DNA of 18,723 nucleotides from a virus (taxonomy: Duplodnaviria > Heunggongvirae > Uroviricota > Caudoviricetes). How positions within the stretch are numbered: position 1 is the stretch's first letter; the number at the start of each line of letters is the position of its first letter. Below the pieces are notes generated by a model that worked only from the letters and a program-made list of their open reading frames with translations, was not told where the DNA came from and made no database searches. Shown in pieces: positions 1-18,723 of this stretch. A program made the position numbers and the translations under genes. The DNA is taken from IMG/VR virus record IMGVR_UViG_2778261420_000008. The stretch is one strand, 5' to 3'.

Positions 1-330
1 GGCGTAAACCTTACGCCGGACCACCGTTCCGCCGACCAGACTCTGCAGATCTTCCGCCATCCCGGTGATCATGCCGTGCAGGTTAGAGACCGTCAGTGTC
101 GGACGGGCAGCACTGCCCTTGCCGTTCATCTCAAATCCACTCCCCTGAATGGGATAGGCCTGATACTGCCGACTCTGCCAGGTGACAGACTCACCTTTTT
201 CGTTCTGCTCATTACAGAAAAAGTAGCGATCCCCGCCTACCTCGGTCAGGTCGATTTCCCAGAGCACCACGCTGGCCGACTGCTCCGCACGAATGCATTC
301 ATTCAGCGTTTCCTGTTGTATGTCCTGCAT
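1..330 (-). CDS. minor tail protein L (lambda gpL-like); N-terminal 110 codons only, C-terminus lies beyond the window start
   Basis: Manual translation of the minus strand from ATG at 330..328 gives [72 protein letters not shown]..., open to position 1. This closely matches lambda gpL as I recall it. The start overlaps the gpM stop in an ATGA arrangement. Not in the ORF track because it is truncated by the window edge. Confidence 0.85.
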   Translation of the reverse strand, partial: MQDIQQETLNECIRAEQSASVVLWEIDLTEVGGDRYFFCNEQNEKGESVTWQSRQYQAYPIQGSGFEMNGKGSAARPTLTVSNLHGMITGMAEDLQSLVGGTVVRRKVYA

Positions 331-668
331 CAGATCACCACTTCGTCAAACTGACACGAAAAATCGGTATAGGTGATATGTTCTGTCGCTGACCACGTTC
401 GACACACCACTCTGATTTTTCTGTTAATACCCGGCGGGCGCCAAAAAAAAGATTTATAGCCTTCATGCCGGGCTAAAAATTTTTCAAATGAATCACGTTC
501 ATTCGCCTCAACTTTGAAATCACAGGTGAAAACGCGCAGAGAATGATTAAGTCCATTTGGACTTCGTTGCTCATAACCATCGCCAAATCTTACAGTTTTT
601 ATCGATGGTTTATTTTCTGTTTTCATTCCATCCTCTGGTAACCAGTGAAATTCTTCCGTATTAGCCAC
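330..668 (-). CDS. minor tail protein M (lambda gpM-like), 112 aa, GTG start
   Basis: Track ORF 330..668. The protein contains [15 protein letters not shown] and a C-terminal FDEVVI, similar to lambda gpM (VRFGDGYSQRAP..., EFEQVVN) from memory. Start codon at 668..666 is GTG with GGGG 6 nt upstream; N-terminal FHWLPEDGM aligns with lambda FRWKVKPGM, supporting the upstream start. Overlaps the tape measure stop by 8 nt. Confidence 0.85.
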
Positions 669-3600
669 TTAACATTCCCCCATCACGTCGCATATTTAAC
701 AGATTGCCCTGCACCCGCTGATCAACCATCCCCATAAGTGCTTTTATTGCCTGAGGGCCAATCTCTCCATTCTGGCCGTCATTTTGAATAGTGATTTGGT
801 ATACAGGGGCATAGGTAATATCTCCGCCTCCATTACCACTTTTACTATTAATAGCTCTGACACCAAGAGAACCATCGGAAGTTCGTGTTAATGGCATAAT
901 GGCTTCCGGTCCAGCCTCACCAAAAACACCAGCCCCTTTTGCAAAAGCAAAAAATTGCGGGGAATCATAAATACCGTTCGAATACGTGCTCAATGACGGA
1001 GACTCATAAACACCGCCCTTTGCATTCGGAATAAATTTACTAATAGCACTCCCGATAGTTCCTAAAATCCCCCCAGAAGAACTGTTACTAATGCTGTCGA
1101 AAATCCCAGTAATTGAAGCCTTTAATGCTATTCGACTAAGATCCGAAATCACGGAAGTAGCGAAAGAACGAAAATTTGCCTTGCCTGTCGTGACAAAATC
1201 ACCCAGCGCATCGGTCATCCCATCAAACATCTGAGTCGTGGTTGATTTTATCTGCTCACTGATATCCTTAGTGTCATCCAGCCAGTTATTGAATCCCTGG
1301 GAGGCACCACTAACCCAGTCTCCTGCCTGAATATCGAGCTGCTCGTTTTTCTGTCTGACAATTTCTTTTTCCCGTTCCAGAGCATCATTCAGAGCCTGCA
1401 TTTTCTCTTGAAAAACATGATCTGACATTCCACGGGATTTATCTGCATAGTCACGTTCAAGTTGCAGACGCTGATTGTTATATCCATGTTCAATCCGCAG
1501 TAATTCCTGCTGGCGTTGCTGATTTTTATCGCCAACCCCATAACCAGCAATCTGAATATCATACCCCTGCTGACGATTATCAATCGAAGCCTGCAATGAA
1601 TCACGCCATGCTGTTATTTCGGCGGATTCCTTGATTAGCCTGTTATTTTTTTCAATCGCAACATTTTTCTCCATCAACGTGGTTATTTCTTCCCGGTGTA
1701 AGAGAAGCGATTTCTGATCCTGGGTTAATTTCGATGATGGTCGTGACTCTAGGTCGGCAATCCGCTGACGCCACTTAACCAGTTCCTGTTCAGAGGAACT
1801 TAATTTAACGGTCAACTCAGCTTGTGAACTTAGTAACGCATTCTGTTGATTCAGATGATCAATCATTCGTTGGGCTGCATCATCAGAATAATCTTTCGCC
1901 TTTGGTTGCTTTGGATCTTTATAACGCTCATTTATTTGAGCGATAAGATTATTATATTCTTCCTTTGAATACTGATTCTTTAGCTTTTCCAGTTTTGCAA
2001 GTTCACTAGCTCTCTGCTGCTCCCGGGTCTGATATTGTTTTGAAAAGGCATCTGCTCTCTGTCTGAGTTCAATTCCTTCCTGTTGTCGCTTGTTGTAATC
2101 GTTTATTGATGAATTTAGTACGTCCTGAGCAATTTTTTCTGCTTGAAGTACGCCCAATTGCTGCTTTAATCGTGCCAGCCTTTTATTTTGAGCTCCGCCA
2201 TCTCCAATGCCACCTAACCCGAAAACTCCGGATCGGGTATTTTTTTCTATTTCATCAATTTGACGGAGAACATCTGAGATTTTTTGATCAAGGGAGGCCT
2301 CACGGCCAATATCCAGCATGGAATCCCATGCCCATTTTGCGGAGTCTGCGACAGCTTTCCATGCAGTCTCAAGATAACCAAGATTTTCTTTAATCTGGTT
2401 GGTGCGCTGGATCATTGAGGATGAGTATTCTTCTGTCGCAATGCGGGCGGCCTCCTGCTGGTTCCCTTCATCCTGTAGCGCCTTAATCTGGTTATAAGTC
2501 GCAAGTGTCAGAAAATGGTACTGATCATTAAGTTTTGATATGGCACTGACAGGATCCTTTGCAATTTCATTGAAGTCATTAACCAGTTGTTCGGTTGATA
2601 TTCCTGTTACTTCGCTCGTTTTTACTATCGCTGTCGTCACTTGCTCCAGCGAACTGCTCGCTACCTTTCCCGAACGCACAAGCTGATTTAATACTGCCGC
2701 CGCAGCACCAGTTGTCGAATCAGCCGCATTCCCGGCACGTTGAGCTAAATCGCCCAATTGCCCGCTGGTTGTCCCCAACTGATTTCCGGTAAGAATAAGA
2801 GATTTATTAAATTCGTCCTGCTCCTGAGAGCCTTTATAGTAAGCCAGTCCTAAGACCCCAACGGCTGCTGCGGCCAGGGTAAAAGGATTAATTAATCCCA
2901 GCACATAAGAACCTACCCCTTTGATCGCCGGGCCAATCCCACCGAACATCTCTTTTAGCTGGCCGCCCTGCTGCATTAACACCATAAATGGCGACTGACC
3001 AGTGGACAACCCAACAACAATATCCGTCATTTGTGCAGGCAACATGCGCATAGCAAAAGCCGTTTGTTTTGCCGACATTCCGGTTTTGCTTAATTGTGAT
3101 TGAGTAACCTCAAGCTCACTCCGCATAGCACGAAGTTTTCCAGAAAGCTCCTCATACATTTCAGGAGAAAGCATCCCCTTAGCTTTTGCTTCATTGAGCT
3201 GTTTCTGTTGTTCTACCAGACGATTAAAAGCAGTTCCGACAGGATCAAGTTGAGCAATCAGACGTTGCAAAGCAACAACCTGTTCATCATGCGCTTTTGC
3301 TGCTTCTCGCTCTGCCTGAGCCTCTCCGGTAAGCTCTCGCCGTGTTTCCTGTATTTTTCGGCTATAATTCTCAAACTGAGAACCATTTATTTTCCCGGAT
3401 GCAAACGCAGCATTAAGTTCATCATGCTGTTGTTCAAGATTTCTTAGCGCCGCAGCCAGAGGGTCGATCTTGTCCAGCATTCTTTGAAAGGCCTGAGCCT
3501 GCGCTTCCTGCTGGGCGGCAGCAAGTTTTCCGGCCTTCTCGGCTTCTCTCTGCGCTTGCGCAACCCCGCTCAATTCCTCTGTGGTTTCATTAAGTTTACG

Positions 3601-3894
3601 GACAAGAAATTCATATTCTTCTTTATCAATAAGCCCTTTATCGAAAAATTTCTTTAATTCAGAATAGCGTCGACCGACAGTATCAATTGCGGCACCAACT
3701 GGATCAATAGCTGCTTTTAATTTTGCGAGCGCGTTCTTCTCATCTTCTGTTGCCTTAGTCACTTTCCCTGCGCTATTTGCAGCAGTTTCCCCAGCCTGCG
3801 TCATTTTGACTAATGAGGAGGTCAGATTGTCAGCATTATTTTTCGCTCCAGTGCTATCAATAATTATTGCGAGACGCGAGGTTTGCTCTGCCAT
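661..3894 (-). CDS. tail tape measure protein (lambda gpH-like C-terminal two thirds with an N-terminal repeat extension), 1077 aa
   Basis: Track ORF 661..3894. The segment [43 protein letters not shown] resembles lambda H ([41 protein letters not shown]) from memory; C-terminus [16 protein letters not shown] also resembles lambda H. Long coiled-coil-rich protein directly upstream of gpM and gpL. AGGAG lies 7 nt before the ATG at 3894. Confidence 0.9.
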
Positions 3895-3912
3895 TTATTA
3901 AAACTCCTGACA

Positions 3913-3939
3913 ACAAAAAACCCACCGCGAAGTGGGTTT
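3913..3939 (-). terminator. intrinsic-terminator-like hairpin 22 nt upstream of the tape measure start codon
   Basis: Minus-strand RNA reads GAAACCCAC-UUCGCG-GUGGGUUUUUUGUUGUC: a perfect 8-bp stem (AAACCCAC/GUGGGUUU), 6-nt loop, then a U-rich tract, followed by the AGGAG ribosome-binding site and ATG of the tape measure gene. Confidence 0.45.
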
Positions 3940-4059
3940 CAGGCGACATAATAGTAGATATAGCGATTACGAGGCCACGCAATGCTTTTCTCCAGGAGCA
4001 TCATCGATTTAATTAAAGACACCATCACATCTCTGTAACAGAGTGTACGTAATTAACAA

Positions 4060-4817
4060 CTACACACACTGCTCCTGAAAATACTGGTCATCCAGTGCAA
4101 AGATCACTGCTTCAAATTCATCGCGCTCAATCAATACCGGATGAGTGGCTAAATATTCATTTATCTCTGTCAGAGATAAAGGCAAAGGCACCCCAGCCAT
4201 TCCAGCATAACGTCGGGCACGGGATATTACCGAATAGGCGTACAACAACTCCTTAAGCACCGGGTCTATTTCTGGTTCCGGTATCGGTGGCAACCTGAGT
4301 TTTTCTCGCTTCCATCTTGCCTTTTCCCCCCTTTCTCCCCCGAACTCCGATAACCACCGCTGGGCAGCTATGGCTTTTTTATCGTATCCTGCTTCTGCTG
4401 CTCTTTACCCTGGGCGATGCTGGCTGCTTCTGCAAGGATCTGCCAGTACAACTCTGGATTCTGCTTAAGCAGCGCGATCCCTCGTTCTGCCGTATATTCC
4501 AGTGCAACCTCAACACCATTAACCAGTTCACCAACCCCTTTCCAGTCTTTCAGCAGATAACGAGCGGCATTATCAATGAGTAAATCATCAACAGAATCCA
4601 CCTCGGAAACCTTTGAAATATCAAACTCCTTCGTTCCGACGTGCAAACTGGCATCCATTTTCTCAATGTGGCGACGGATTAATGCATTACGGGAGCGATA
4701 CTGATCGTTATCGCTGCTTGCCACCAACAGTTTTAACCCGTCTACAGGTTTTAAGTCCTTCATTGGCGTAAACCAGCGTTCTCCACCAATGATAATTTTC
4801 TGATTAAGAATAAACAT
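4060..4817 (-). CDS. tail assembly chaperone long form (lambda G-T-like fusion) made by a -1 frameshift at 4374..4380
   Basis: The zero-frame ORF 4368..4817 ends QDTIKKP-stop. The -1 frame is open from the slippery site through ...KKAIAAQRWLSEFGGERGEKARWKREKLRLPPIPEPEIDPVLKELL... to the stop at 4060 (verified codon by codon for 4261..4380). Position between major tail protein and tape measure is the canonical G/GT location. Confidence 0.7.
4368..4817 (-). CDS. tail assembly chaperone short form (gpG-equivalent), 149 aa
   Basis: Track ORF 4368..4829. The preferred start is the ATG at 4817..4815 (MFILNQKIIIGG...) because GAGG lies 7 nt upstream, whereas the track start at 4829 has no ribosome-binding site. 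Ends in the slippery heptamer context. Confidence 0.75.
   Translation of the reverse strand: MFILNQKIIIGGERWFTPMKDLKPVDGLKLLVASSDNDQYRSRNALIRRHIEKMDASLHVGTKEFDISKVSEVDSVDDLLIDNAARYLLKDWKGVGELVNGVEVALEYTAERGIALLKQNPELYWQILAEAASIAQGKEQQKQDTIKKP
4374..4380 (-). promoter_or_regulatory. programmed -1 ribosomal frameshift slippery heptamer A_AAA_AAG
   Basis: Minus-strand codons ...ACG ATA AAA AAG CCA TAG: the heptamer A AAA AAG sits two codons before the zero-frame stop, and the -1 frame continues open for about 105 codons. Same heptamer class as the E. coli dnaX frameshift site. Confidence 0.7.
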
Positions 4818-4877
4818 CCATAACCTCATTCAATGCGTCCCCCTGTAGGGCAGTACCACAGGAGGAATAACGGAAAA

Positions 4878-5840
4878 TCAACTAATCGCCTCAGCACTGG
4901 CTTTTGCGATCACGGCAGCCGGGGAATTTTTTTTTCTGGTTATCGTAGGTGCTTCATCTGCTGCGGTAATGCTCAATTGAACCTGGATAATGTCGCTATT
5001 ACCCCCATCAGGCCATTCACCTGACACCTGAACCTTCGGGAAACTGAAAGTGTATGCCCCCTCTCCATTCGAAAGCGTGAAGCTGAACGGAACTGTTTCT
5101 CCAGTCAGTGTTTTACTCCAGATTTCCCACGCGGCTTTAGACCATGAAAGCGTCACCGTACCGGACGGTGTAAAAGTAGTCGGAATATTTGCTCCTGCAT
5201 AAGGCGAGCCAGTCCCGATACAACGCTGTGTCTGGAGTTTGTTATCGAACTGAATATCAAAACTGTCGATACAAAAACCGTTACCTCCGGCAACACCATT
5301 CAGGCTTACTGCTGAAACCTCCTTAAACGAATAACGTAGCTTTCCTGCACTATCCACAGGTTCGCCTTTGATAAAATTCGTATCATCGGCCTTTGATTCC
5401 CAGTCCAGTCCGGCAAAGGTTACGGTCGCTGTAATATCGCCGTCGTTAGGGATCTGCATTTTCCATGAGCCAACCTGCGCTCCTCTGACGACAGAGGCAA
5501 TTCCGACATCGGACGCATAGGTCGCCAGAGAAAATGTTATTCGCTCATTCCCCATTGTCAGAGAATCGCCTGACCATTCCGCGCCGAAACAGGATGCAAG
5601 AAAATCATCATGTTGACCCCAGCGAAATTTGGTACCAACATCACCGCCGACATCCACAGTGCCAGGCGTCGCCCCCTGAGCCATCCGGGAGCCACCAATC
5701 TCATTATTTTCGCCTTTATTCTGGGTGGGTTTTACTCCCCAGCTTGTGCGTTTTAATAAACTCCAGTCACCACTTGCTGGCGTAGTGCCTGCAACCGTCT
5801 CCCGGATAAATGCCGAGATAACCTTTGCACCTGAACTCAC
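4878..5840 (-). CDS. major tail (tube) protein, 320 aa, GTG start
   Basis: Track ORF 4878..5840. Start codon at 5840..5838 is GTG, preceded by AGGAGG with 5-nt spacing. Lies immediately upstream of the chaperone frameshift gene, the conserved position of the major tail protein in siphophage tail modules. The sequence is not lambda gpV-like. Confidence 0.6.
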   Translation of the reverse strand: MSSGAKVISAFIRETVAGTTPASGDWSLLKRTSWGVKPTQNKGENNEIGGSRMAQGATPGTVDVGGDVGTKFRWGQHDDFLASCFGAEWSGDSLTMGNERITFSLATYASDVGIASVVRGAQVGSWKMQIPNDGDITATVTFAGLDWESKADDTNFIKGEPVDSAGKLRYSFKEVSAVSLNGVAGGNGFCIDSFDIQFDNKLQTQRCIGTGSPYAGANIPTTFTPSGTVTLSWSKAAWEIWSKTLTGETVPFSFTLSNGEGAYTFSFPKVQVSGEWPDGGNSDIIQVQLSITAADEAPTITRKKNSPAAVIAKASAEAIS

Positions 5841-5866
5841 AGGAGCCTCCTATGTCATTAATTGCG

Positions 5867-6259
5867 CTAGAGCGCGCGATATGGAATTTGAAGATTAAGC
5901 TGGAACCAGCCATTCTTTTCGCCAACGGCTATTGAGGAAACAGCCTGGTAACTGAGACGATCGTCATCCTGAAACTCAAACAGTTCCCGCAATTTATCGG
6001 CTGTCTCAGTAATGAGTTTTGAACCAGAACCTGCGGGGACAAATAACTGAATAATGATTATCCCCGTGCGATAAACAATCGGCCCCGCGCCAATTTCATT
6101 AACTCCAGCCTGCCCGGGAATATTACTTAACCGCGCCCAGATTAACTTACCGGAAGGATCGAACGTTGGCGCGTTCGGATACAATACGTCTTTTCCATCA
6201 ATAATCGTCTGTGCCGTCATTCTGGAAATAACCGTATTTCTGATTTCAGTAAACGTCAT
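5867..6259 (-). CDS. tail terminator / tail completion protein (gpU-equivalent by position), 130 aa
   Basis: Track ORF. ATGA start/stop overlap with the upstream gene at 6256..6259. Size and position between the head-tail joining genes and the major tail gene. Function assigned by synteny only. Confidence 0.5.
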   Translation of the reverse strand: MTFTEIRNTVISRMTAQTIIDGKDVLYPNAPTFDPSGKLIWARLSNIPGQAGVNEIGAGPIVYRTGIIIIQLFVPAGSGSKLITETADKLRELFEFQDDDRLSYQAVSSIAVGEKNGWFQLNLQIPYRAL

Positions 6260-6636
6260 TTGTAAGCCTGTAAAACACCATGAAAAGCGTTGGCATACAC
6301 GCCAGTTGGCGCTTGTTGTGAATGACCGTTTTCAAGAGCCTCTGCATAAGGAAGGTTATTCTGGATATAAATAACTCCGTAATTTGCAGCTTTCGAAATA
6401 ACCCCGATCCCACGCTGAACAGCAATCGTACCGTTCGGATCCACGTTATCAGATATACCAAAATCGGGATGCTGTAACGACACCAGGTTGTTATTTCTGA
6501 AACGTCCGGTATCAACCGGAGCAGCAATATCAATAGCAGTAAGAATCTGAATAGCGATGTAGCGAATCTTCAGCCCTACATCTTCCTCAATCATCCCGGC
6601 AAATATTGACGGTTCTATATCCCATGCCTTTGCCAT
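6256..6636 (-). CDS. head-tail joining protein (HK97 gp10-like by size and position), 126 aa
   Basis: Track ORF 6256..6636, translationally coupled to its neighbours. Assignment by synteny and size; family membership is a recollection, not a computed hit. Confidence 0.5.
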   Translation of the reverse strand: MAKAWDIEPSIFAGMIEEDVGLKIRYIAIQILTAIDIAAPVDTGRFRNNNLVSLQHPDFGISDNVDPNGTIAVQRGIGVISKAANYGVIYIQNNLPYAEALENGHSQQAPTGVYANAFHGVLQAYK

Positions 6637-7415: not shown

Positions 7416-7418
7416 GTG

Positions 7419-7595
7419 TTACTCCTGAGTTTTCCAGCCCATAGCCTTCCAGTTGTCAACTTCATCAGGATGAACATTAGCGATAGTTGGTGCGCCGGGA
7501 AACATCTGATAATCGGTCACCATAACCACTAACTCAATTTGCGTTTTTTGTGCGGCTTCACGCTGTGCTCTTTGCTCTTTAGTTAATCCGGCCAT
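7419..7595 (-). CDS. small hypothetical protein, 58 aa (not in the ORF track)
   Basis: Manual translation gives MAGLTKEQRAQREAAQKTQIELVVMVTDYQMFPGAPTIANVHPDEVDNWKAMGWKTQE. GGGGGG lies 3 to 4 nt before the ATG, and the stop TAA is 3 nt before the ATG of the next gene (TAACACATG), suggesting translational coupling. Below the track length cut-off. Confidence 0.4.
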   Translation of the reverse strand: MAGLTKEQRAQREAAQKTQIELVVMVTDYQMFPGAPTIANVHPDEVDNWKAMGWKTQE

Positions 7596-12247: not shown

Positions 12248-12249
12248 AA

Positions 12250-13551
12250 TTAAATCCGAAGTGATGTGACTCTTCCGGTCGGTTTGACAATAGGGAATTG
12301 CTTAACGATGAAATAACCTCCGGCATCATTCGGGTGATCATTGCCAGATTTTTTATCAGGCTCCCCCTTATCATCCCAGACCTGTTGCTCCAGAGATTCG
12401 GCATATACCGGACAACGCTTCACATTAACTTTATAGCGACGCTCACCATTGGCATTGCAGAACATTGCATTCATTGAGTTAACGCGATCTTTTACTGGCG
12501 GGTTCGAGCTGTTCACCACAACGTTAAAACCTGCCTGCTTAAGCTGGGCTATATCCGTCGTACTTGCGTTACTTGATTTTCTGGAATCTCCGGAAGCATC
12601 TGGATAAATATAAATCTCCCTCACTTTCCGGTAATCATGCCCGTCATACAGCCAGAAGCGTTCTTTAATGAGGCGGATCATATCCGGCGTATCGTAGGCA
12701 TTGATGATTTCAGTTACCGCACATGGAAGCCCCAAACGCAGCACATGGACGATTCCCGCCATCTTTCCAACGTTAAAATCCATCCCAATATAAATCGGCT
12801 CCCCTGGCTGCTCCACTTCTTCGCAATTATTCAGTTTCCGGTCAAACTGATGGTAAACAGTACCACTTGTCAGGTTAGTAAACCGTCCTAGAAGATAGGC
12901 TTTAATCAGCTCTGGAGGGTATGATTCAAGAAGTGAAGGAATGTAATCTGCTGGCAGGTTCTTTTCATTATCGAAAGTAGATGCCTGCACCAGACCATAC
13001 AGTGAGGCCAGCTCTGTTTTTTCACGCACGGCTTTAACAAACTGCTCGTAGACAAATTTGAATCCTTCCGGCGTGGTTGTAACGTCAATACCGTTGCGAA
13101 GTCCATCAATCTTATAACGCATACGCGCAATTATCTTGCGCCACGCCGTTCTGGCTTTTTCCTTCGGCAAAATGTCCAGTTCATCCACCAGCGCATTACC
13201 AATTTTGAAACCGACGATCGTTTGTGGCTTCTCCATCGATCTGCAGATAGTGGTTCCCCGATACTGGCGTCCGTAATAAAAGTGAACCTCTTTATTTCCC
13301 TCATTAATTTTTACGTTCAATCCCCAGTCAGCAGCAACTTCTTCCACTGTAGGGTAAAAAATATCGCGAATTTGGGGATACGTTGGCGCAAAATATCCCT
13401 GATTTATACCTGGATGCTCCCAAATCCCCTTGCATATGCCGCCACACCCAACCCATGTTTTGCCCGAGCCAAAACCAGCAATATAGGCTTTAAATTTATG
13501 GGGCATTGAAAGAAATCGCGCCTGAGGCACATTAAGCGTCGGAGAGATCAT
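12250..13551 (-). CDS. terminase large subunit, 433 aa
   Basis: Track ORF 12250..13560. Walker A motif AGFGSGKTW near the N-terminus and a Walker B-like LVDELD. Preferred start is the ATG at 13551 (MISPTLNV...) because AAGGAG lies 8 nt upstream; the track start at 13560 is GTG with no spacing. Overlaps the small terminase by 20 nt. Confidence 0.85.
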   Translation of the reverse strand: MISPTLNVPQARFLSMPHKFKAYIAGFGSGKTWVGCGGICKGIWEHPGINQGYFAPTYPQIRDIFYPTVEEVAADWGLNVKINEGNKEVHFYYGRQYRGTTICRSMEKPQTIVGFKIGNALVDELDILPKEKARTAWRKIIARMRYKIDGLRNGIDVTTTPEGFKFVYEQFVKAVREKTELASLYGLVQASTFDNEKNLPADYIPSLLESYPPELIKAYLLGRFTNLTSGTVYHQFDRKLNNCEEVEQPGEPIYIGMDFNVGKMAGIVHVLRLGLPCAVTEIINAYDTPDMIRLIKERFWLYDGHDYRKVREIYIYPDASGDSRKSSNASTTDIAQLKQAGFNVVVNSSNPPVKDRVNSMNAMFCNANGERRYKVNVKRCPVYAESLEQQVWDDKGEPDKKSGNDHPNDAGGYFIVKQFPIVKPTGRVTSLRI

Positions 13552-14626
13552 CTTCATCACTCCTTAATCTGGCATCAACCACATTAATATTGATCGCCAC
13601 AGGCTGGGGATGTTCATTATCCTCCACCGTTTCGATCTCTTTGCGCAGCTTCTGGTTCTCTATTCTGCGCCGTTCAATTTCCAGTTCCTGTAGCCGCTTA
13701 TCTGCACATAATGCCCCGCCAGCAGAAAGCAAACGCAACAATTCACGCCGGGCGGCAGCCTTATCCTCCAGCAGGATCTCAACACCGTATTTTCCGAGCT
13801 TTGACCCTGCATATAATTGCCGCGCATCCCCATCAAGCAGTGTGGTATCAGCCATATAAAGCTGTCCTGTTCCCTCACCGCAGCACTTCGGGCAATCAGG
13901 ATTGGGTATGGCGTTATCAACAAAGCCGAGGCCTCCATATTCCGGCTCGGGTTTACCATCTCTGGAGGCCTGTGCCGCAGCCTTATCGAATTCTGCAATA
14001 TCACGCCACTGGTAGAGATGATTCTCGCCCCAGCAATAACGGCAGTTAACACGGCGAAATTGTGCCAACTGATTGGGGTCGGCCTGGACAATGGCCATCA
14101 ACTGGCTCACCAGTAAATCCAGGTCTGCGGTATAGCGTTTCTGGTACTGATTGCGGAAGTAGCTGATAGCACGATAAACCCTGGCATTTCTAAGCATACG
14201 GCTGGCGTTGCTGTTAGCTGTCGCACCTTGCCCCTCATAACCAGCCAGTCGGTATGCCTCTGTCGGCTTTTTCCCCTGAGCAACCAACATGGCGAATTTT
14301 GCCTGCTGGTCAGAAATACCGAATTCATCGGGGCAGAACGAAATTTCTTCCGTGTCCCCCTCAATCAGGAGTGCATCGGATACAGCCTTTTTTTTCTGAG
14401 ATTTTCCGTTCTGCCTTTGCGCAGTCTGCGCAGTTTTTTTTCGCGCACTTTTTTGCGCAGTTTTGCGCATTTCTTTCTGCGCATTTTTCGGAGTTTTTTT
14501 GATGTAACGACGGGCTGTTGCGTAGTTCAGTCCCCTTGCTTCACACCATGCCACCGGAGATATACCGGAGCGGGTGTATTCAGCAATATACTCCTGCTGC
14601 AACGCCCCCCAGTCCGGTCTGCTCAT
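13532..14626 (-). CDS. terminase small subunit (N-terminal HTH-like region, central Terminase_2-like motif, C-terminal Cys-rich putative zinc ribbon), 364 aa
   Basis: Track ORF. The central EAYRLAGYEGQGATANSNASRMLRNARVYRAISYF resembles the small-terminase signature I recall; the C-terminal part carries CRYC...CPKCC. Sits immediately upstream of, and overlapping, the large terminase gene. Contains a lysine-rich low-complexity linker encoded by the TGCGCA repeat cluster. Confidence 0.7.
   Translation of the reverse strand: MSRPDWGALQQEYIAEYTRSGISPVAWCEARGLNYATARRYIKKTPKNAQKEMRKTAQKSARKKTAQTAQRQNGKSQKKKAVSDALLIEGDTEEISFCPDEFGISDQQAKFAMLVAQGKKPTEAYRLAGYEGQGATANSNASRMLRNARVYRAISYFRNQYQKRYTADLDLLVSQLMAIVQADPNQLAQFRRVNCRYCWGENHLYQWRDIAEFDKAAAQASRDGKPEPEYGGLGFVDNAIPNPDCPKCCGEGTGQLYMADTTLLDGDARQLYAGSKLGKYGVEILLEDKAAARRELLRLLSAGGALCADKRLQELEIERRRIENQKLRKEIETVEDNEHPQPVAININVVDARLRSDEDDLSDA
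14418..14483. repeat. cluster of six palindromic TGCGCA-type hexamers (five exact, one CGCGCA), each followed by a T-run, inside the small-terminase coding sequence
   Basis: Exact TGCGCA at 14418, 14427, 14454, 14464 and 14478; CGCGCA at 14442; spacings 9 to 15 bp. On the coding strand it encodes the basic linker KNAQKEMRKTAQKSARKKTAQTAQRQ. Confidence 0.8.
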
Positions 14627-14629
14627 CAG

Positions 14630-14881
14630 TTAGTCCTGATTTTTATCCACCCTGAGTAGTTCGCGCAGAGCAAAGGCATCCCCTTTTCTGGCAAGCTTAA
14701 ACAATGCCGCTCGTAACTCGGCTTCACCTTTCGCTCTGCCCTTACGGATGGCCGCATAAAAATCTGTCATTGCTTCCCGATTTTCTTTCAGTCGGTTCAG
14801 ATCAACATCCAGAACGTCAGCGATTTGTTGTGCAGTCATCCGGCACGCTGCCAGAGACTCGACTTTCGAATACGGAATCAT
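14630..14881 (-). CDS. small hypothetical protein, possible HTH DNA-binding / packaging accessory protein, 83 aa
   Basis: Track ORF. GGGGGTG lies 5 nt before the ATG at 14881, and the stop is 3 nt before the small-terminase ATG. The segment MTAQQIADVLDVDLNRLKE looks like a helix-turn-helix. Overlaps the 3-prime end of the upstream gene by 65 nt in another frame. Confidence 0.5.
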   Translation of the reverse strand: MIPYSKVESLAACRMTAQQIADVLDVDLNRLKENREAMTDFYAAIRKGRAKGEAELRAALFKLARKGDAFALRELLRVDKNQD

Positions 14882-15749
14882 TTGTCACCCCCATTGATAT
14901 GCAGGGTGTCTTCTTCCTGTATTTTTCGTGAAGGATTTTTACTGCAGCGTTGTTCCAGGTGACCTGATGGTGAATGCGTTTATGGCTGGCACCCATCAGT
15001 GAGATTTTTACGCACGACGGCGAATACATGACGGAGTAAAAACTTTTAACGTAGGTTCCGGAATCCAGATACAGCTCGGTCATTCCGCCGCTGTTTTTCT
15101 GCGTCTGTTTCTGCCCTAACTGGACAGCACCGATCGTCATAAACAATTCACCACAGCGACCGAGATTCGTGTACGTATTCACATCCTCGTTAATGCGCCC
15201 CATGAATGAGAACGGTCGATCAACCGAACAGATAAAGCTGTTCATTGCCTTGCGTTTCACCCACGAAGCATGGCCGCCATTGTCACCAAGAAAATCCCCG
15301 CCCTGCGACATAGCGATGGAAAGCGCGGGTATTGATTCGTAATACGCCAGCATTTCAGAAAGGATCGCATCCAGTTTCCTTATCGGGAAATAGGCCTGGT
15401 CATAGTTGCGATCCACCCGAAACTGGAACTCGTGATAATCATCATCGAGCTGAATGAAGTATTTACACCCGACCAGTTTTGCCAGGTCGAAACAGGCATT
15501 ACGGGCGTAAAAAATTGAGCGGCGATCACCAAAATTATCGGCTTCGTCAAAACGACTGGCAATATCGGCTTTGGAAAATACCAGCACCTGTTCACCAAAT
15601 TCAGCCATGTACTGATGCCGTGTCTTATCTTCATCATCAACAACGATAAAAATTTTCCCGGTATAGCCAGCACGACGCAACGTCCGGTAAGTCAGAACTT
15701 TGTCCGGTCGCCCGTGAGTCAGAATAAAGGCGCAAAAATCATCACGCAT
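14817..15749 (-). CDS. soluble GT-A-like (family 2-like) glycosyltransferase-like protein, 310 aa; function unknown
   Basis: Track ORF 14817..15773. Preferred start is the ATG at 15749 (MRDDFCAFILTHGRP...), preceded by GGAGGAGGAGGAGGAA. N-terminal FILTHGRPDKV...GKIFIVVDDED and the later KYFIQLDDDY resemble the two acidic motifs of GT-A glycosyltransferases as I recall them. No long hydrophobic segments. May correspond to the K-12 Rac ydaY remnant (recollection). Confidence 0.55.
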   Translation of the reverse strand: MRDDFCAFILTHGRPDKVLTYRTLRRAGYTGKIFIVVDDEDKTRHQYMAEFGEQVLVFSKADIASRFDEADNFGDRRSIFYARNACFDLAKLVGCKYFIQLDDDYHEFQFRVDRNYDQAYFPIRKLDAILSEMLAYYESIPALSIAMSQGGDFLGDNGGHASWVKRKAMNSFICSVDRPFSFMGRINEDVNTYTNLGRCGELFMTIGAVQLGQKQTQKNSGGMTELYLDSGTYVKSFYSVMYSPSCVKISLMGASHKRIHHQVTWNNAAVKILHEKYRKKTPCISMGVTNDSVFESRVSGSVPDDCTTNR

Positions 15750-16536
15750 ATTCCTCCTCCTCCTCCCCGCCATGCATGATCTCCACCATGCGCTGCGTCA
15801 TTCGGACAAATCCATTTTCAATAGCCTGCTGATAATCAATGATCACCAGCGCCGACTCCTCGAAAAGGCACTGAATTTCAGCGGGGGCATGAGCGTAATA
15901 GTCCGCAATTCTGCTGAAATTAAACACTGTGTGACGTTCTGCCGCACACAGGAGGAATTTCTCAATATCAGGATCAAGGGACGCCGAACGTATCCGGCTG
16001 ATCAGCTCCTGAGTTTTCGTATCGTCGTACAGTTCACTGATATCCGGTTTACCGCCCGACGGCTCATAAACAGGCGTATCAATTTTCGTCGTATACGGCT
16101 CCTCCTCATTTCCTGTACCGGGCAAAACATCCGTCAACAGTTCATCAATTTCTGTCGGGATGAAGCCTGTCAGGGAGACATCAAAATCAGCATTGATTAG
16201 GTCCGACAGCTCCATCCGCAACAGATCTTCATCCCAGCCAGCATTCATCGGCAGGCGATTATCTGCCAGGCGGTACGCCTTTTTCTGCTCATCCGTCAGG
16301 CCAGACAGAACAATGACCGGAACAGAATCCATTTTGAGCATTTCAGCCGCCATAACACGACCGTGACCCGCAATAATTTCGCCCTTTTCGTCAATCAGCA
16401 CCGGATTAGTCCAGCCGAATTGCTTAATACTTTCTACCAGTTGTGCCACCTGCTCAGGGCTGTGCGTCCTGGCGTTGTGCGCATACGGTGACAATTCTTG
16501 TAATGGGCGATAGACTATCTTTAATTTCTCGCTCAT
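15742..16536 (-). CDS. ParB-like nuclease domain (ParB/Srx fold) protein with acidic C-terminal tail, 264 aa
   Basis: Track ORF. N-terminal YRPLQELSPYAHNARTHSPEQVAQLVESIKQFGWTNPVLIDEKGEIIAGHGRVMAA carries the GxGR motif characteristic of the ParB N-terminal domain. AAGG lies 8 nt before the ATG at 16536. C-terminus is GGEEEEEYA. May correspond to K-12 Rac ynaK (recollection). Confidence 0.75.
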   Translation of the reverse strand: MSEKLKIVYRPLQELSPYAHNARTHSPEQVAQLVESIKQFGWTNPVLIDEKGEIIAGHGRVMAAEMLKMDSVPVIVLSGLTDEQKKAYRLADNRLPMNAGWDEDLLRMELSDLINADFDVSLTGFIPTEIDELLTDVLPGTGNEEEPYTTKIDTPVYEPSGGKPDISELYDDTKTQELISRIRSASLDPDIEKFLLCAAERHTVFNFSRIADYYAHAPAEIQCLFEESALVIIDYQQAIENGFVRMTQRMVEIMHGGEEEEEYA

Positions 16537-16550
16537 ACAGCCTTGCTTTA

Positions 16551-16587
16551 TGAATAAAACGCACCCCAGCAGCCAGTGCTACTGGGG
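16551..16587 (-). terminator. intrinsic terminator downstream of trkG
   Basis: Minus-strand RNA CCCCAGUAGC-ACUG-GCUGCUGGGG (10-bp stem with one U-G wobble, 4-nt loop) followed by UGCGUUUUAUUCA, about 90 nt after the trkG stop and directly before the ribosome-binding site of the ParB-like gene. Confidence 0.6.
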
Positions 16588-16673
16588 ACGGAGGGGTTGC
16601 TGGTAAAGTTAGGTATTGGATCAATGAGTGAGTCAACATAATATTAAACTCACAATTATAAATCAGCCATATA

Positions 16674-18131
16674 TTAGGAGCGCCAAAAAAAACCTGAAAA
16701 CAATATAATAACAGGATAAATTTCAAGGCGACCAAGAATCATAGCTATGCACATTAAACATTTTGCAATGTCATTAAGCACTCCGAATGACGATGCAGTA
16801 GCCCCAAAACCTAATCCCATATTATTAATACATGCAGCCACTGTTGCAAATGATGTAAGAAAATCATATCCCATACCATTTAACACCAGTATAAAAAACA
16901 CCGTGAAGAGAGTATAAAGAAAAAAGAAACTCCATACAGACCTCATTACACGATCTGTAACTATCTTCCCTCCTACATTTACACTCAACAACGCTCTGGG
17001 ATGAGAAAGCTGATTTATCTCGTGTTTGCTTTGTTTGAAAAGTATAAGAAATCGAAGTGACTTAATTCCACCACAAGTTGAACCTATACATCCCCCAAAG
17101 AAACTTGACAACAGCAAAAACACTATCGTGTGCGTGGGCCAACTTGCATAATCCTGCGTAGCTAAACCATTATCAGTGAGCATGGAGCTGGCAAGAAAAA
17201 ACGAATGAATAAAACTTCCATGCAAGTCATACATACCTATATGCCAGACCTGGAAAGAGGTAACAATGATCACCCCTAAGGCTATTAACAGAAAGAAACG
17301 AAGTTCAATATCTCTGATTAAAGGTTTTATCGTTTTCCTGCTAATAACAATATACCAAAGAGTGAAGTTGAAAGCCGATAGCAGGGAAAAAGAACCAGCC
17401 ACCAGCTCAACCAAATAGTTATTAAAATATCCGATACTCTCGCTATGAGTTGAGAAACCACCAAGCGAAACTGTGGAAATCCCGTGACAAATAGCATCAA
17501 ACAAAGGCATTCCTGCAAGTCTATAACAGACAATACAAGCAATACCTAATAAAGAATAAGTTATCCACAGTGTCCGTGACGTATCGGCCAGGCGGGGAGT
17601 GAGTTTGTCATCCTTAAATGGCCCCGGCATTTCTGACTGATAAAGCTTTGCACCACCAATACCCAATAATGGCAATACAGCAACCGCCAGAACAATAACT
17701 CCTAAACCACCTATAAAATTTAACTGTGACCGATAGTACAAATATGCCCGAGGTAATGAACTAACATCATCAATTACAGTTGCTCCTGTTGTTGTTATTC
17801 CAGAAACCCCTTCAAACAGAGCATCAATGAACGTTAAATTAAGTTCTGAGTCAATCCATAAAGGGAATGCACTAATAACAGAAAACAAAATCCAAAACAT
17901 TACAATTATAATAAACCCATCACGGGTACGTAATTGAATGCCAGATTTCTTAGTTGTATACCACGCTCCGCCACCAATGCAAAAAAATATAACGAAAGTT
18001 ATAAAGAAAACGAACAGGCTTTTTTCTTTATAAAACAATGCTACAACCATTGGTGGCAACATTGAAAGACTATAGAGCCAAACCAGGAACCCACACATAT
18101 GAGTAACAACTCTTACATGAGATGTATTCAT
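16674..18131 (-). CDS. trkG: TrkH-family potassium uptake protein TrkG, 485 aa
   Basis: Track ORF 16674..18149; the ATG at 18131 gives MNTSHVRVVTHMCGFLVWLYSL..., which I recognise as E. coli TrkG. Strong similarity to TrkH throughout (SGITTTGATV, LYQSEMPGPFKDDK, GGFSTHSESIGYF, FGRLEIYP). The track start at 18149 is TTG and rejected. Visibly AT-rich compared with neighbouring phage genes. Confidence 0.9.
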   Translation of the reverse strand: MNTSHVRVVTHMCGFLVWLYSLSMLPPMVVALFYKEKSLFVFFITFVIFFCIGGGAWYTTKKSGIQLRTRDGFIIIVMFWILFSVISAFPLWIDSELNLTFIDALFEGVSGITTTGATVIDDVSSLPRAYLYYRSQLNFIGGLGVIVLAVAVLPLLGIGGAKLYQSEMPGPFKDDKLTPRLADTSRTLWITYSLLGIACIVCYRLAGMPLFDAICHGISTVSLGGFSTHSESIGYFNNYLVELVAGSFSLLSAFNFTLWYIVISRKTIKPLIRDIELRFFLLIALGVIIVTSFQVWHIGMYDLHGSFIHSFFLASSMLTDNGLATQDYASWPTHTIVFLLLSSFFGGCIGSTCGGIKSLRFLILFKQSKHEINQLSHPRALLSVNVGGKIVTDRVMRSVWSFFFLYTLFTVFFILVLNGMGYDFLTSFATVAACINNMGLGFGATASSFGVLNDIAKCLMCIAMILGRLEIYPVIILFSGFFWRS

Positions 18132-18268
18132 ATCTAAATATTCTTTCAATTATAACCACCTTGCTGCAATATTATGATTATACTGTATAAAATTTAACTC
18201 CTCTTAGATCTTACTTCACTGTTCCTTATGAAACAATCATCAAAATGAATCATATTGTAGTTAAGATT

Positions 18269-18673
18269 TTACTTTAAACACTGCTCGGTTATGTATTGCT
18301 GAGCACCTTCAAGTTGGGCCTGCATCATTACCAGTCGTTCCCGGAGGGTGAAATAATCCCGTTCAGCGGTGTCTGCCAGTCGGGGGGAGGCTGCATTATC
18401 CACGCCGGAGGCGGTGGTGGCTTCACGCACTGACTGACAGACTGCTTTGATGTGCAACCGACGACGACCAGCGGCAACATCATCACGCAGAACATCATTT
18501 TCAGCTTTCGCATCAGCTAACTCCTTCGTGTATTTTGCATCGAGCGCAGCAACATCACGCTGACGCATCTGCATGTCAGTAATTGCCGCGTTCGCCAGCT
18601 TCAGTTCTCTGGCATTTTTGTCGCGCTGTTCTTTGTAGGCGATGGCTGGATTTGCCCCTATATTTCCAGACAC
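18269..18673 (-). pseudogene. rzpR: Rz-type i-spanin lacking its N-terminal transmembrane segment (5-prime truncated, likely pseudogene)
   Basis: Track ORF. The protein from [51 protein letters not shown]... matches lambda Rz from memory, but the frame opens with GTG at 18673 immediately after an in-frame TAA (18677..18679). None of the three frames upstream to the window end encodes a hydrophobic segment. Confidence 0.7.
18328..18513 (-). CDS. rzoR: Rz1-type o-spanin outer-membrane lipoprotein, 61 aa, embedded in the +1 frame of the Rz gene
   Basis: Track [27 protein letters not shown]... has a signal peptide and lipobox (VVGC), followed by the proline-rich [15 protein letters not shown], nearly identical to lambda Rz1 from memory. 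Entirely nested in the Rz reading frame. Confidence 0.85.
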
Positions 18674-18723
18674 CTGTTATCACTTAACCCATTACTGGCC
18701 TGCTGCCGCAGATATTCCCGTGG

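Follow-up and report, generated by a model that had tools for sequence, protein, structure and literature searches.

The window analysed here, the whole stretch of 18,723 nucleotides, reads as the late operon of a full-length lambdoid prophage of the Rac family, the form from which the cryptic Rac prophage of E. coli K-12 would have arisen by deletion. We put the probability of this reading at about 0.9. All genes lie on the minus strand, in the order Rz remnant, Rz1, trkG, ParB-like gene, TAGT gene, small ORF, TerS, TerL, portal, MuF-like gene, scaffold, P22-type coat, small ORF, adaptor, head closure, neck/tail completion, tail terminator, tube, chaperone, tape measure, M and L. The late ORFs (about 20) are all open, uninterrupted and assigned to families, and they are identical to those of many other genomes.

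The cryptic prophage used for comparison was K-12 Rac (rzpR-rzoR-trkG-ynaK-ydaY-ynaA/tmpR-lomR-stfR-tfaR-pinR). Its order from rzpR to ynaA (tmpR) had been given correctly in an earlier note on this DNA, according to the K-12 record, and alignment confirmed that the flanks match Rac genes: window positions 16283–18646 correspond to K-12 1423267–1425630 with 99.70% identity and positions 2960–4719 to K-12 1425629–1427388 with 99.94%. This likeness of 99.7–99.9% covers Rz from codon 30, Rz1, trkG, the 5' end of the ParB-like gene, the 3' end of the chaperone gene, the following spacer and tape-measure codons 1–311. The gene order is alike as well, and the chromosomal neighbourhood of K-12 Rac is shared with relatives of the window. 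K-12 lacks two parts of the window: one reaches from the 3' end of the ParB-like gene through the 5' end of the chaperone gene, the other takes in the remainder of the tape measure together with M and L. The intervals and the genes at their edges are:

4720–16282, no strand: interval missing from K-12 Rac (deletion 1), 11,563 bp, with a 2-nt microhomology 'aa'
1–2959, no strand: the portion of K-12 deletion 2 that falls in the window; this deletion extends from tape-measure codon 312 to lom
4060–4829, minus strand: tail assembly chaperone, in which a programmed -1 frameshift of the G/GT type at the slippery heptamer A AAA AAG (4380–4374) would give a 256-aa fusion
3917–3940, minus strand: terminator-like hairpin (stem of 10 bp, then a T run) within the 165 nt that precede the tape-measure gene
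661–3894, minus strand: tape measure protein, 1077 aa (Pfam TMP_2, TMP_4 and Tape_meas_lam_C; BLASTP against gpH)

The earlier note had placed the K-12 deletion between ydaY and the tape measure. The gap lies instead between ynaK and ydaY, and K-12 is contiguous with the intact form from ydaY through tape-measure codon ~311. Nor is the gene after the ParB-like gene ydaY, as had been supposed, but a TAGT glycosyltransferase gene. ynaK and ydaY are fusion artefacts of the 11.6-kb deletion, which joined ParB codon ~84 to chaperone codon ~37. ynaK corresponds to approximately codons 1–84 of a 264-aa ParB-like family (phrog_620); ydaY is the 3' part of the chaperone gene, namely the 3' three-quarters of its 0-frame ORF (K-12 junction at window position 4719), and its ATG is out of frame. 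The frameshifted chaperone matches phrog_313 over positions 13–246 of 258, whereas the unshifted ORF matches 13–149; since the fusion extends the profile match, the -1 frameshift product is supported. In deletion 2, 8,427 bp long when measured on the intact reference L001, the first 311 tape-measure codons, kept in ynaA/tmpR, are joined to lom; the K-12 match ends at window position 2960. K-12 Rac thus arose from this arrangement by at least three illegitimate deletions, at ydaW/Rz, of 11.6 kb (ynaK/ydaY) and of 8.4 kb (tape measure–lom). Relative to the IS2 in Rz of the window, the K-12 ydaW/Rz deletion lies 67 bp further upstream; K-12 also carries an IS5 in lom. No target-site or att-like features were seen at window positions 4719/4720 and 16282/16283.

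Because the flanks are near-identical and the deletion junctions exact, we regard the window as the undeleted counterpart of K-12 Rac. It could instead stem from another lambdoid prophage that has only the trkG region and the tail genes in common with Rac, through recent recombination, so that K-12 never had the head module. Lambdoid prophages are indeed strongly mosaic, 'Rac-type' prophages vary between strains in their early regions (L001 carries a cargo island and other replication genes), and Rac gene content varies from strain to strain (PMC5700373). However, K-12 keeps both sides of each gap at 99.7–99.9% identity, ynaK and ydaY are out-of-context ParB-like and chaperone fragments joined at a 2-nt microhomology, and tape-measure codons 1–311 are fused to lom. 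Such junction fragments and the tape measure–lom fusion are footprints of deletion and not of independent origin. A different prophage, already disfavoured, is thus very improbable.

The undeleted form is widespread. At least 80% of the window is present in 695 of 5,426 complete E. coli genomes, in many of these 695 with bases 1–18646 at 100%. In related genomes ttcA is the integration site of the Rac-family prophage, and intact relatives adjoin uspF/ompN and carry pinR, tfaR and stfR-type genes. Hence the full-length late region (lysis, head and tail) is the common form in the Rac family of E. coli, and K-12 has only a twice-deleted remnant of it. Deposited "phage" records matching the module are all predicted prophages, one of which takes in host genes.

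The earlier note had described the window as an apparently intact Rac late region with the head and tail genes that K-12 misses. This holds for the uninterrupted packaging-head-neck-tail module, but Rz is broken by an IS2, and 'apparently intact' therefore fits the structural module only. The lysis end comprises:

18647–18723, minus strand: right terminus (last 77 nt) of an IS2-like IS3-family element, 73/77 identical to the end of K-12 IS2A; the alignment stops exactly at the IS terminus
18269–18646, minus strand: Rz (i-spanin) remnant, codons 30–153, 92.7% amino acid identity to lambda Rz residues 30–152
18328–18513, minus strand: Rz1 (o-spanin), K-12 rzoR, a 61-aa ORF embedded in Rz and inside the 99.7% K-12 match
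16674–18131, minus strand: trkG potassium transporter moron (Pfam TrkH, E=5e-145), 99.7% identical to K-12 trkG

A mere cut of Rz by the window edge was considered and rejected, since positions 18647–18723 are the IS2-like right terminus inserted at Rz codon 30. The Rz sequence restarts at this codon directly after the IS end; intact Rz in L001 has 154 aa. In other genomes the 77-nt segment matches only IS3-family copies located elsewhere. The transposase of the element reads in the phage late-gene direction. The GC content of trkG is low (38–40%), with a promoter-like site upstream (18278–18249) and a terminator-like hairpin downstream (16587–16564).

The insertion would remove the i-spanin and would probably be polar on the late transcript, and for these reasons the prophage copy in the source strain is probably impaired. 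Whether this copy is already a decaying, non-functional remnant, its structural genes being passengers yet to be deleted, is evenly balanced in our view. Spanin loss is not always lethal for phage production, as in lambda, which speaks against decay; so do the ~20 open late ORFs, identical in many other genomes, and Q-type antitermination, which may read through the IS. Decay is suggested by the IS2 within Rz at the window edge, by lysis-cassette IS insertions that recur in other genomes, by frequent deletions starting in the TAGT gene, and by the literature, in which more than half of strains are reported to have lost half of Rac.

Where a strain is free of such lesions, the module would assemble a siphovirus whose head is P22-type and whose tail tip is lambda-type, with packaging that would probably be headful. 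The packaging, head, neck and tube genes are:

13532–14626, minus strand: terminase small subunit, unusually long with 364 aa (Pfam Terminase_2; phrog_51, E=6e-75)
12250–13551, minus strand: terminase large subunit, T4-type Terminase_6N/6C (Pfam, E=3.5e-32 and 7.8e-11)
10841–12247, minus strand: portal protein (Pfam DUF4055, E=7e-45)
9745–10857, minus strand: MuF/SPP1-gp7-like minor head protein (Pfam Phage_Mu_F, E=2e-9)
8876–9640, minus strand: scaffolding protein (Pfam DUF6651, E=2e-61; phrog_206 head scaffolding, E=1.5e-22)
7638–8777, minus strand: major capsid protein, P22-coat family (Pfam P22_CoatProtein, E=9e-13; PGAP product name)
5867–7595, minus strand: small ORF (58 aa), head-tail adaptor Ad1, head closure Hc1, neck/tail completion and tail terminator (phrog_1514, phrog_493, phrog_161, phrog_169; Pfam Phage_tail_terminator_5)
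4878–5840, minus strand: tail tube protein (Pfam Phage_tube_2, E=9e-32)

A headful-type lineage of the head module is plausible because of the T4-type TerL, the P22-type coat, the MuF/SPP1-gp7-like protein and the nearest isolated relatives (Kagunavirus, Jerseyvirus, Dhillonvirus). By TerL, the nearest phages are the Pseudomonas phage Medea1 (70%), Kagunavirus (~52%) and Jerseyvirus (~44%). That the head module and the major tail protein are of non-lambda lineage, as the earlier note had proposed, is borne out by BLASTP, in which they have no detectable similarity to lambda proteins, including TerL against lambda A and the tube protein against lambda V.

Full-size, active Rac-like prophages have already been published, and the main finding is in this respect not new. 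More interesting are the ParB-like/TAGT gene pair, which is uncharacterised, and a deletion hotspot inside the TAGT gene. The pair and the ORF behind it are:

15742–16536, minus strand: ParB-like protein, 264 aa (Pfam ParB_N; phrog_620, E=1.5e-90)
14817–15749, minus strand: TAGT-family glycosyltransferase of GT-A fold, 310 aa (Pfam PF20691 TAGT, E=6e-35; phrog_842, E=1.5e-103)
14630–14839, minus strand: small conserved ORF (69–83 aa) between TAGT and TerS (phrog_309 partial match, E=8e-23)

The ParB-like protein has an N-terminal domain of the ParB/Srx nucleotide-binding type and a conserved C-terminal domain without known relatives. Its closest solved relatives are Noc/Spo0J/ParB, and its N-domain is like the N-module found in ParB-methyltransferase fusions (phrog_498; PADLOC MTase_II, E=2.5e-38). 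The K-12 junction at window position 16283 leaves the first ~84 codons as ynaK. The TAGT gene, which overlaps the ParB-like stop by 8 nt, is wholly absent from K-12; its DDD motif is invariant. Adjacency of the two genes is kept in 79 of 80 IMG/VR loci and also in four distant viruses, and the pair directly precedes terminase genes of four unrelated families in viruses of bacteria and archaea. Related loci carry an ORF of ~85 aa at the same position between TAGT and TerS.

Taking ParB-activated phage thymine dioxygenases and ParB-methyltransferase fusions as models, we infer that the two proteins would work jointly as a DNA-directed glycosyltransferase expressed late, the ParB-like protein targeting or activating TAGT. 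Activation of a DNA-modifying enzyme by a ParB-like protein has been demonstrated for the phage thymine dioxygenases (O'Toole et al. 2026, PNAS; PMC13229309). These ParB-like proteins likewise combine an N-terminal nucleotide-binding and a C-terminal domain without an obvious DNA-binding domain, and their genes adjoin an enzyme of a DNA-modification family, often near terminase genes. In the window, however, the partner is a glycosyltransferase and not a dioxygenase, and the likeness is one of architecture and context. With the T2/T6 beta-glucosyl-HMC-alpha-glucosyltransferase and the 5mYOX-associated GT-A DNA glycosyltransferases the window TAGT shares PF20691 membership, the DDD motif and being phage-encoded. 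It differs from them in its ParB-like partner and in having no hydroxymethylcytosine/hydroxymethyluracil pathway, alpha/beta-GT or TET/JBP nearby, and it falls in the 'solitary TAGT' class of undefined function (PMC13216743).

Against DNA modification counts that the phage has no hydroxymethyl-pyrimidine pathway and the known TAGT acceptors are therefore absent. Among 115 neighbours of ParB-like/TAGT loci no TET/JBP dioxygenase was found, and the neighbours include no thymidylate-synthase homologue or other hydroxymethyl-base enzyme; surveys have judged glycosyltransferases without nearby 5mYOX or ThyS less likely to be DNA modifiers. Moreover, GREB1, a relative, is described as glycosylating a protein (PMC7968844). 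The pair could instead serve packaging, the ParB-like protein aiding DNA recognition by terminase, or virion-protein glycosylation, TAGT acting on a structural protein, and its place directly upstream of TerS/TerL across four terminase families would fit this role. We consider such a role rather unlikely, as the ParB N-domain is of the subtype fused to DNA methyltransferases, the TAGT relatives of known function (T2/T6 and JGT) act on DNA (PMC13216743), ParB-like activation of a DNA-modifying enzyme has precedent, and the position before the terminase also suits a post-replicative DNA modifier.

The hotspot lies within the TAGT gene:

15043–15064, minus strand: deletion-junction hotspot at TAGT codons ~238–243, overlapping the 8-bp palindrome TTCCGGAA (15056–15063)

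This region of ~20 bp is the left end common to ~13 independent deletions, whose right ends vary from 4 to 24 kb downstream in the late-gene direction. Sixteen of 22 TAGT fusion proteins break here, where detection is one-sided in that only fusions keeping the TAGT N-terminus are visible. The DNA junctions fall at window positions 15054–15058 with microhomologies of 0–4 nt, and four independent IMG/VR loci likewise end at the hotspot. The small ORF follows after ~170 bp and TerS after ~430 bp, a location where pac sites often occur (P22, SPP1). A recurrent site-specific double-strand break, repaired by microhomology-mediated end joining, would account for the common left end, the variable right ends, the short microhomologies and the location. 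The break might arise at a phage pac site, through packaging toward the head genes that aborts, or at a target of a host or competitor nuclease. This explanation is tentative and, on balance, somewhat doubtful: synonymous-site conservation at the hotspot shows no excess, no Chi site protects the left end, the palindrome TTCCGGAA is the only local feature, and the one-sided detection of fusions also weighs against it.

Published full-size Rac-like prophages include KingRac (46.8 kb at ttcA, particles seen by EM), which replaced K-12 Rac in vivo (PMC6731689; Frazão et al. 2019), those of LT-II ETEC (PMC5917428; Jobling 2016), and Sp10 and CP-933R of O157:H7 (PMC4632033). By their descriptions, they resemble the prophage of the window as ttcA-integrated, Rac-related lambdoid elements of ~47 kb whose head and tail genes are complete. 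The late regions of Rac-like prophages are mosaic; with Escherichia phage Rac-SA53 the window has only 4% of its length in common. For the module of the window, virion production is predicted from its genes. Guernseyvirinae-type phages (Kagunavirus, Jerseyvirus) and Dhillonvirus resemble it in a Terminase_6-type TerL (40–52% full-length), the only protein compared, but they are virulent phages of ~40–45 kb, and the TerL of Medea1 is closer.

With lambda, the window shares the order and logic of lysis, terminase, head, neck, tail shaft, G/GT frameshift, tape measure, M and L. The tail end comprises:

330–668, minus strand: gpM-like minor tail protein (Pfam Phage_min_tail, E=1e-31), 41.9% to lambda M (BLASTP)
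1–352, minus strand: lambda-type segment with the last 22 bp of M and the first 110 gpL codons, 87–90% DNA identity (blastn 87.2%), L being cut by the window end

Mosaicism with lambda, claimed in the earlier note, stands in principle. Rz (92.7%) and L (88.2%) are close at the amino acid level, but M (41.9%) and the tape measure (28%) are not, although the earlier note had counted gpM and the C-terminal part of the tape measure as close. Rz/Rz1 DNA is 92% identical to lambda, Rz/Rz1 and L together 88–93%, while the tape measure and M are homologous. The recombination junction postulated inside the tape-measure gene was not recovered, as this protein is collinear with gpH residues 57–850 at 28% identity (BLASTP) with no identity step (19–42% per 100 residues). 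A sharp DNA mosaic junction lies instead at position ~352, 22 bp before the M stop codon. We place the junction accordingly at the M/L boundary, from where the tail-tip genes become lambda-like. In contrast to lambda, the terminase, portal, scaffold, coat, neck, terminator and tube have no detectable BLASTP similarity, and cos-type Nu1/A, a protease and a decoration protein are absent. The tape measure exceeds that of lambda by 224 aa owing to three N-terminal repeats (tandem, ~80 aa each, within ~270 aa; z=12–19), and the trkG moron and the ParB/TAGT pair are situated between the lysis and packaging genes.

The window is the undeleted form of the Rac late region, which had been the central interpretation of the earlier note. 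All of its substantial ORFs lie on the minus strand in one tightly packed operon, and no packaging, head or tail ORF is interrupted.

Genes of the window in order of transcription, with coordinates where the text refers to them
(-) Rz remnant, lambda-like, with embedded Rz1; first in the direction of transcription
(-) trkG, TrkH family (E=5e-145)
15742-16536 (-) ParB-like protein, 264 aa
14817-15749 (-) glycosyltransferase of the TAGT family (PF20691), 310/318 aa, followed by a small ORF
(-) terminase small subunit, long (364 aa)
(-) terminase large subunit, T4-type (Terminase_6N/6C)
(-) portal (DUF4055), MuF/SPP1-gp7-like minor head protein, scaffold (DUF6651) and P22-family coat protein, in this order
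(-) 58-aa ORF, head-tail adaptor, head-closure protein, neck/tail-completion protein and tail terminator, in this order
(-) tube protein (Phage_tube_2), then the tail assembly chaperone (4368-4829)
(-) tape measure (1077 aa), gpM homologue and gpL homologue (first 110 codons), in this order

The flanks match the cryptic Rac prophage of E. coli K-12. According to BLAST, window 16283-18646 corresponds to K-12 1423267-1425630 (99.70% identity over 2,364 bp) and window 2960-4719 to K-12 1425629-1427388 (99.94% over 1,760 bp), the two blocks being collinear. The K-12 gene order had been stated rightly: the MG1655 record reads rzpR, rzoR, trkG, ynaK, ydaY, ynaA (tmpR), lomR::IS5, stfR, tfaR and pinR. 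The Rac marker genes rzoR, trkG, ynaK, ydaY and tmpR are near-identical and in the same order in the window, which places it in the Rac family. The deletion in K-12, however, had been put between ydaY and the tape-measure remnant, while the BLAST blocks locate it between ynaK and ydaY. K-12 lacks window 4720-16282 (11,563 bp), with a 2-nt microhomology at the junction. Here ynaK consists of codons 1 to ~84 of the ParB-like gene, after which three out-of-frame codons lead to a stop; ydaY starts at an out-of-frame ATG within ynaK and reads on into chaperone codon ~37. A second deletion, of 8,427 bp as measured in L001, the intact reference Rac-type prophage segment of the IS-free E. coli strain LD22-1 (NZ_CP047876), joined tape-measure codon 311/312 (window 2960/2959) bluntly to lom, and a third joined ydaW to Rz codon ~7. 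Judged from these alignments, the K-12 junctions are footprints of loss from a window-like arrangement rather than of an independent origin, and in their exactness they offer a clean example of a prophage turning cryptic.

This result matters mostly for annotation. As read from the joint, ynaK and ydaY are the two stumps of one 11.6-kb deletion and not genes in their own right. In the NCBI annotation of intact prophages the open 264-aa ParB-like gene (window 15742-16536; L001 17111-17368) is labelled as a C-terminally truncated 'ynaK pseudogene', and the chaperone gene (window 4368-4829; L001 28920-29279) is begun at an internal TTG, yielding a 119-aa 'YdaY'. Thus, because of the K-12 names, the NCBI pipeline mislabels intact ParB-like and chaperone genes in hundreds of genomes. 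Of 5,426 complete E. coli genomes, 695 contain at least 80% of the window at a single location, and many of these are 100% identical across window bases 1-18646. The ynaK-ydaY joint of K-12 is shared by 348 genomes, laboratory K-12 derivatives being numerous among them.

The region had been called apparently intact. This holds for the structural module with its open ORFs, but the lysis, packaging, head and tail genes do not form a complete, uninterrupted set, as Rz is split by IS2. Window 18647-18723, the first 77 nt in gene orientation, matches neither K-12 nor most genomes. All 77 of the 77 nt align to an IS2 end at 94.8% identity, and the alignment stops at the last base of K-12 IS2A. The window edge therefore carries the right end of an IS2-like (IS3 family) element, the single element end within the window. 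Since Rz resumes at codon 30 right after this terminus, Rz is insertionally disrupted in the source strain. The IS2-Rz junction as one piece was found at 100% in no complete E. coli genome of the collection. A mosaic junction inside Rz was considered for the 77 nt and rejected, the stretch being the IS2 terminus. Both matches begin at the same window base, and the IS2 site might be taken for the ydaW-Rz junction of K-12; the latter lies 67 bp further upstream (L001 14934 versus 15001 for the IS2 site), which discards this equation. Other genomes, too, repeatedly have IS3-family insertions here, in the adjacent lysozyme gene and in rzpD, which gives the lysis cassette the appearance of a site often hit by IS elements.

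The trkG gene has 38-40% G+C, compared with 45-50% elsewhere in the window, and has a promoter-like site on one side and a strong terminator-like hairpin on the other. Its low G+C and these bracketing elements give it a moron-like look. Scans of the window for Rfam families and tRNAs found none.

The window had also been described as a mosaic with parts close to lambda. At the DNA level only two segments match lambda, Rz/Rz1 (92%) and window 1-352 (87%). Among the proteins the claimed closeness is borne out for Rz (92.7% identity) and L (88.2%), but not for M (41.9%) or the tape measure (28% over 808 residues, collinear with gpH residues 57-850); all other window proteins gave no lambda match in BLASTP. 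Terminase, portal, coat and tube have no BLASTP match to lambda Nu1/A, B, E and V at E<=0.01, and they belong to Pfam families that differ from those of lambda. Hence, the structural module is not lambda-like. The tail tip module is lambda-like, with homologues of gpH, gpM and gpL in order (Tape_meas_lam_C, Phage_min_tail and Phage_tail_L).

A recombination junction had been postulated inside the tape-measure gene. Identity to gpH is flat along the alignment (19-42% per 100 residues), which rules this out. A sharp mosaic junction is seen 22 bp ahead of the M stop codon; at this point DNA identity to lambda rises from ~50% to ~90%. Junctions at gene boundaries are typical of lambdoid phages, and by its position the M/L junction is of this type. 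It remains correct that the N-terminus of the tape measure is without a counterpart in gpH: residues ~1-270 (window 3090-3894) form three tandem repeats of ~80 aa (z = 12-19; the observed score was reached in 0 of 500 shuffles), all three of which are kept in K-12 ynaA. From its 1077 aa the tape measure would give a tail of roughly 160 nm.

At the end of the chaperone ORF a dnaX-type slippery heptamer, A AAA AAG, is located at 4380-4374. The -1 frame is open for ~100 codons and would encode a T-like extension directly ahead of the tape-measure gene. The predicted 256-aa frameshift fusion spans positions 13-246 of the 258 in phrog_313, compared with 13-149 for the unshifted ORF. The heptamer, the open -1 frame and the fuller profile coverage together show that the G/GT mechanism is conserved. 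Between the frameshift product and the tape-measure gene there is an unusual non-coding gap of 165 nt (window 3895-4059), which contains a strong terminator-like hairpin (3917-3940) and has no counterpart in lambda. Hairpins of this kind also occur downstream of the MuF-like gene (9706-9725) and of the coat gene (7614-7627).

Among isolated phages, the large terminase subunit comes closest to that of Pseudomonas phage Medea1 (70%), followed by Kagunavirus (~52%), Jerseyvirus (~44%) and Dhillonvirus (~40%). The module has Terminase_6N/6C domains, a MuF-like protein and a P22-type coat. From these assignments a separate head lineage, probably of the headful type, is plausible.

Directly before the terminase genes, the TAGT gene overlaps the stop codon of the ParB-like gene (window 14817-16536, minus strand). 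Its matches to Pfam TAGT (E=6e-35; 121.5 bits against a cut-off of 27.5) and phrog_842 (E=1.5e-103) assign it to the same family as the T2/T6 beta-glucosyl-HMC-alpha-glucosyltransferase. The aspartates D110-D112 of its DDD motif are invariant in five distant homologues, and a solved relative was not detectable by sequence. Among deposited phages, relatives with 27-46% identity occur in those of Nocardia, Vibrio, Lactobacillus and Porphyromonas and in the haloarchaeal virus HHTV-2. In all four deposited viruses inspected, a ParB-like gene lies directly before the TAGT gene and overlaps it, and in three of the four the terminase genes follow the pair immediately. Carriers of the pair include phages of Lactobacillus and Nocardia as well as HHTV-2. 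At 33-48% identity, conservation extends across the whole of both proteins, including the DDD motif and the distinctive C-terminal domain of the ParB-like protein. The overlap of the ParB-like ORF with the TAGT start recurs in 79 of 80 IMG/VR loci encoding TAGT relatives. The sole exception is a metagenomic viral contig, L084, in which the ParB-like gene lies 3.2 kb upstream; its positions 6016-7734 encode a fusion of the TAGT domain with a class-I SAM methyltransferase domain. At the 3' end of the window gene (14817-14960, codons ~270-305) synonymous-site conservation is 0.57-0.93, compared with a gene average of 0.47. This end overlaps the start of the small ORF, and hence an overlapping coding or regulatory constraint is possible.

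The N-terminal domain of the ParB-like protein is most similar to the N-terminal module of ParB-DNA-methyltransferase fusions, and also to CTPase-type ParB/Noc domains. A DNA thymine dioxygenase has been described that strictly requires a phage ParB-like protein as its activator on double-stranded DNA, and the respective dioxygenase/ParB clusters often include glycosyltransferases and lie near terminases (PMC13229309). The window gene has the make-up of a gene from such a ParB-activated system: an N-terminal NBD and a C-terminal domain, with adjacency and co-conservation across four phyla including an archaeal virus. Fusions of ParB and TAGT, sought as Rosetta-stone evidence, are absent among the best 120 homologues of a family with at least 7,983 matches.

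The surroundings of the pair were surveyed by way of its 115 immediate neighbours at 30 diverse loci. Downstream genes encode terminases of four different Pfam families, and upstream genes are heterogeneous. A TET/JBP dioxygenase (5mYOX), a dCMP/dUMP hydroxymethylase or a primary alpha/beta-GT was found neither in the window nor among these neighbours nor in the annotation of L001. Thus, the pair is not associated with a hydroxymethyl-pyrimidine enzyme or primary alpha/beta-GT of a TAGT glycosylation pathway. 'Solitary' TAGTs are described as functionally undefined (PMC13216743), and in the literature glycosyltransferases that lack a precursor enzyme nearby were put aside as less obviously DNA-directed. 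A role of the pair in protein glycosylation or in packaging is a serious rival. From the ParB kinship and the strict linkage we infer a two-protein, late-expressed, DNA-directed glycosyltransferase.

The TAGT gene is also a recurrent site of breakage. Among its best 120 homologues are 22 E. coli fusion proteins in which an N-terminal TAGT piece, ~93-100% identical to the window, is joined to other sequence; this detection is one-sided, as only fusions keeping the TAGT N-terminus are visible. Sixteen of the 22 break at residues 238-243 (…LYLDS/G/T/YV/K…) and run on into MuF-like, tube, gpI, gpJ, tail-fibre or Tfa sequences, and the other six are scattered. The sixteen represent ~13 distinct events, deletions of 4.2-24.3 kb with a common left endpoint. 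NCBI assembly contigs bear this out with genuine prophage remnants that have left junctions at window 15054-15058, i.e. within 5 bp, with 0-4 nt of microhomology and differing right partners. Four independent IMG/VR loci end within the same ~20 bp. The sole local feature at this hotspot (window 15043-15064) is the palindrome TTCCGGAA.

Several explanations for the common endpoint were considered. A site-specific recombinase is disfavoured, the partner sites being diverse, and compared by eye the hotspot bears a poor resemblance to invertase (gix/cix/hix) or dif-like sites. Protection of the left end by a Chi site was rejected, as there is no Chi nearby. A pac site in the form of a conserved cis element gave no signal, the synonymous sites at the hotspot not being unusually conserved. 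The simplest reading of the junctions is a recurrent site-specific break, which might arise at a pac site through abortive packaging toward the head genes or at the target of a nuclease. The reproducible endpoint suggests that a defined DNA lesion shapes prophage decay.

The pair may be a self-contained DNA glycosylation system that modifies phage DNA in late infection without a hydroxymethyl-pyrimidine precursor pathway, the ParB-like protein being the obligate DNA-loading or activating partner of the TAGT protein. Separately, the hotspot may be a site-specific break, possibly pac, driving a recurrent, one-directional decay of Rac-type prophages. We regard this reading as unlikely, at roughly one chance in four. 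If true, the acceptor chemistry or the role of TAGT would be new, and the system would be carried by about one eighth of complete E. coli genomes as well as by viruses of Proteobacteria, Firmicutes, Actinobacteria and haloarchaea. The very widespread, tightly linked pair at the head of a packaging operon and the reproducible deletion endpoint could matter more than the main result. The ParB-like/TAGT cassette and the deletion hotspot are the parts worth following up.

Beyond the window, intact relatives continue with K, I, J and lom, then a tail fibre gene, tfaR and pinR, as far as uspF/ompN. L001 and a second relative with the same sequence, L005, have pinR-ydfK/ynaE-uspF-ompN on the right side. 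Two other relatives, L092 and L093, carry sitABCD at the right end. In the LD22-1 prophage a cargo block of ~7 kb (L001 2382-9694, outside the window) lies between replication and late-regulation genes; among its products are a BCCT transporter, a DUF2254 protein, a LysR regulator, a gamma-glutamylcyclotransferase, an MFS transporter and a DUF1971 protein.

Of the deposited 'phage' records, ten match the window at 98.3-98.7%. These records, vB_EcoS-666R9 and Salmonella phage SPF_0923 among them, were rejected as proof of virions: they are prophages predicted by PHASTER, and one includes the host genes uspF, ompN and ydbK. The deposited records thus give no demonstration of virion production. 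Phage Rac-SA53 differs from the window, of which it shares only 4%. Particle formation is documented for KingRac, a 46.8-kb prophage at ttcA that replaced the defective Rac of K-12 in the mouse gut (PMC6731689). LT-II toxins are encoded by full-sized Rac-like prophages (PMC5917428), and Sp10 and CP-933R of O157:H7 are Rac-like as well (PMC4632033). Our main finding is correct in outline, ordinary and, in view of these published prophages, not new: full-size relatives of Rac have already been described.
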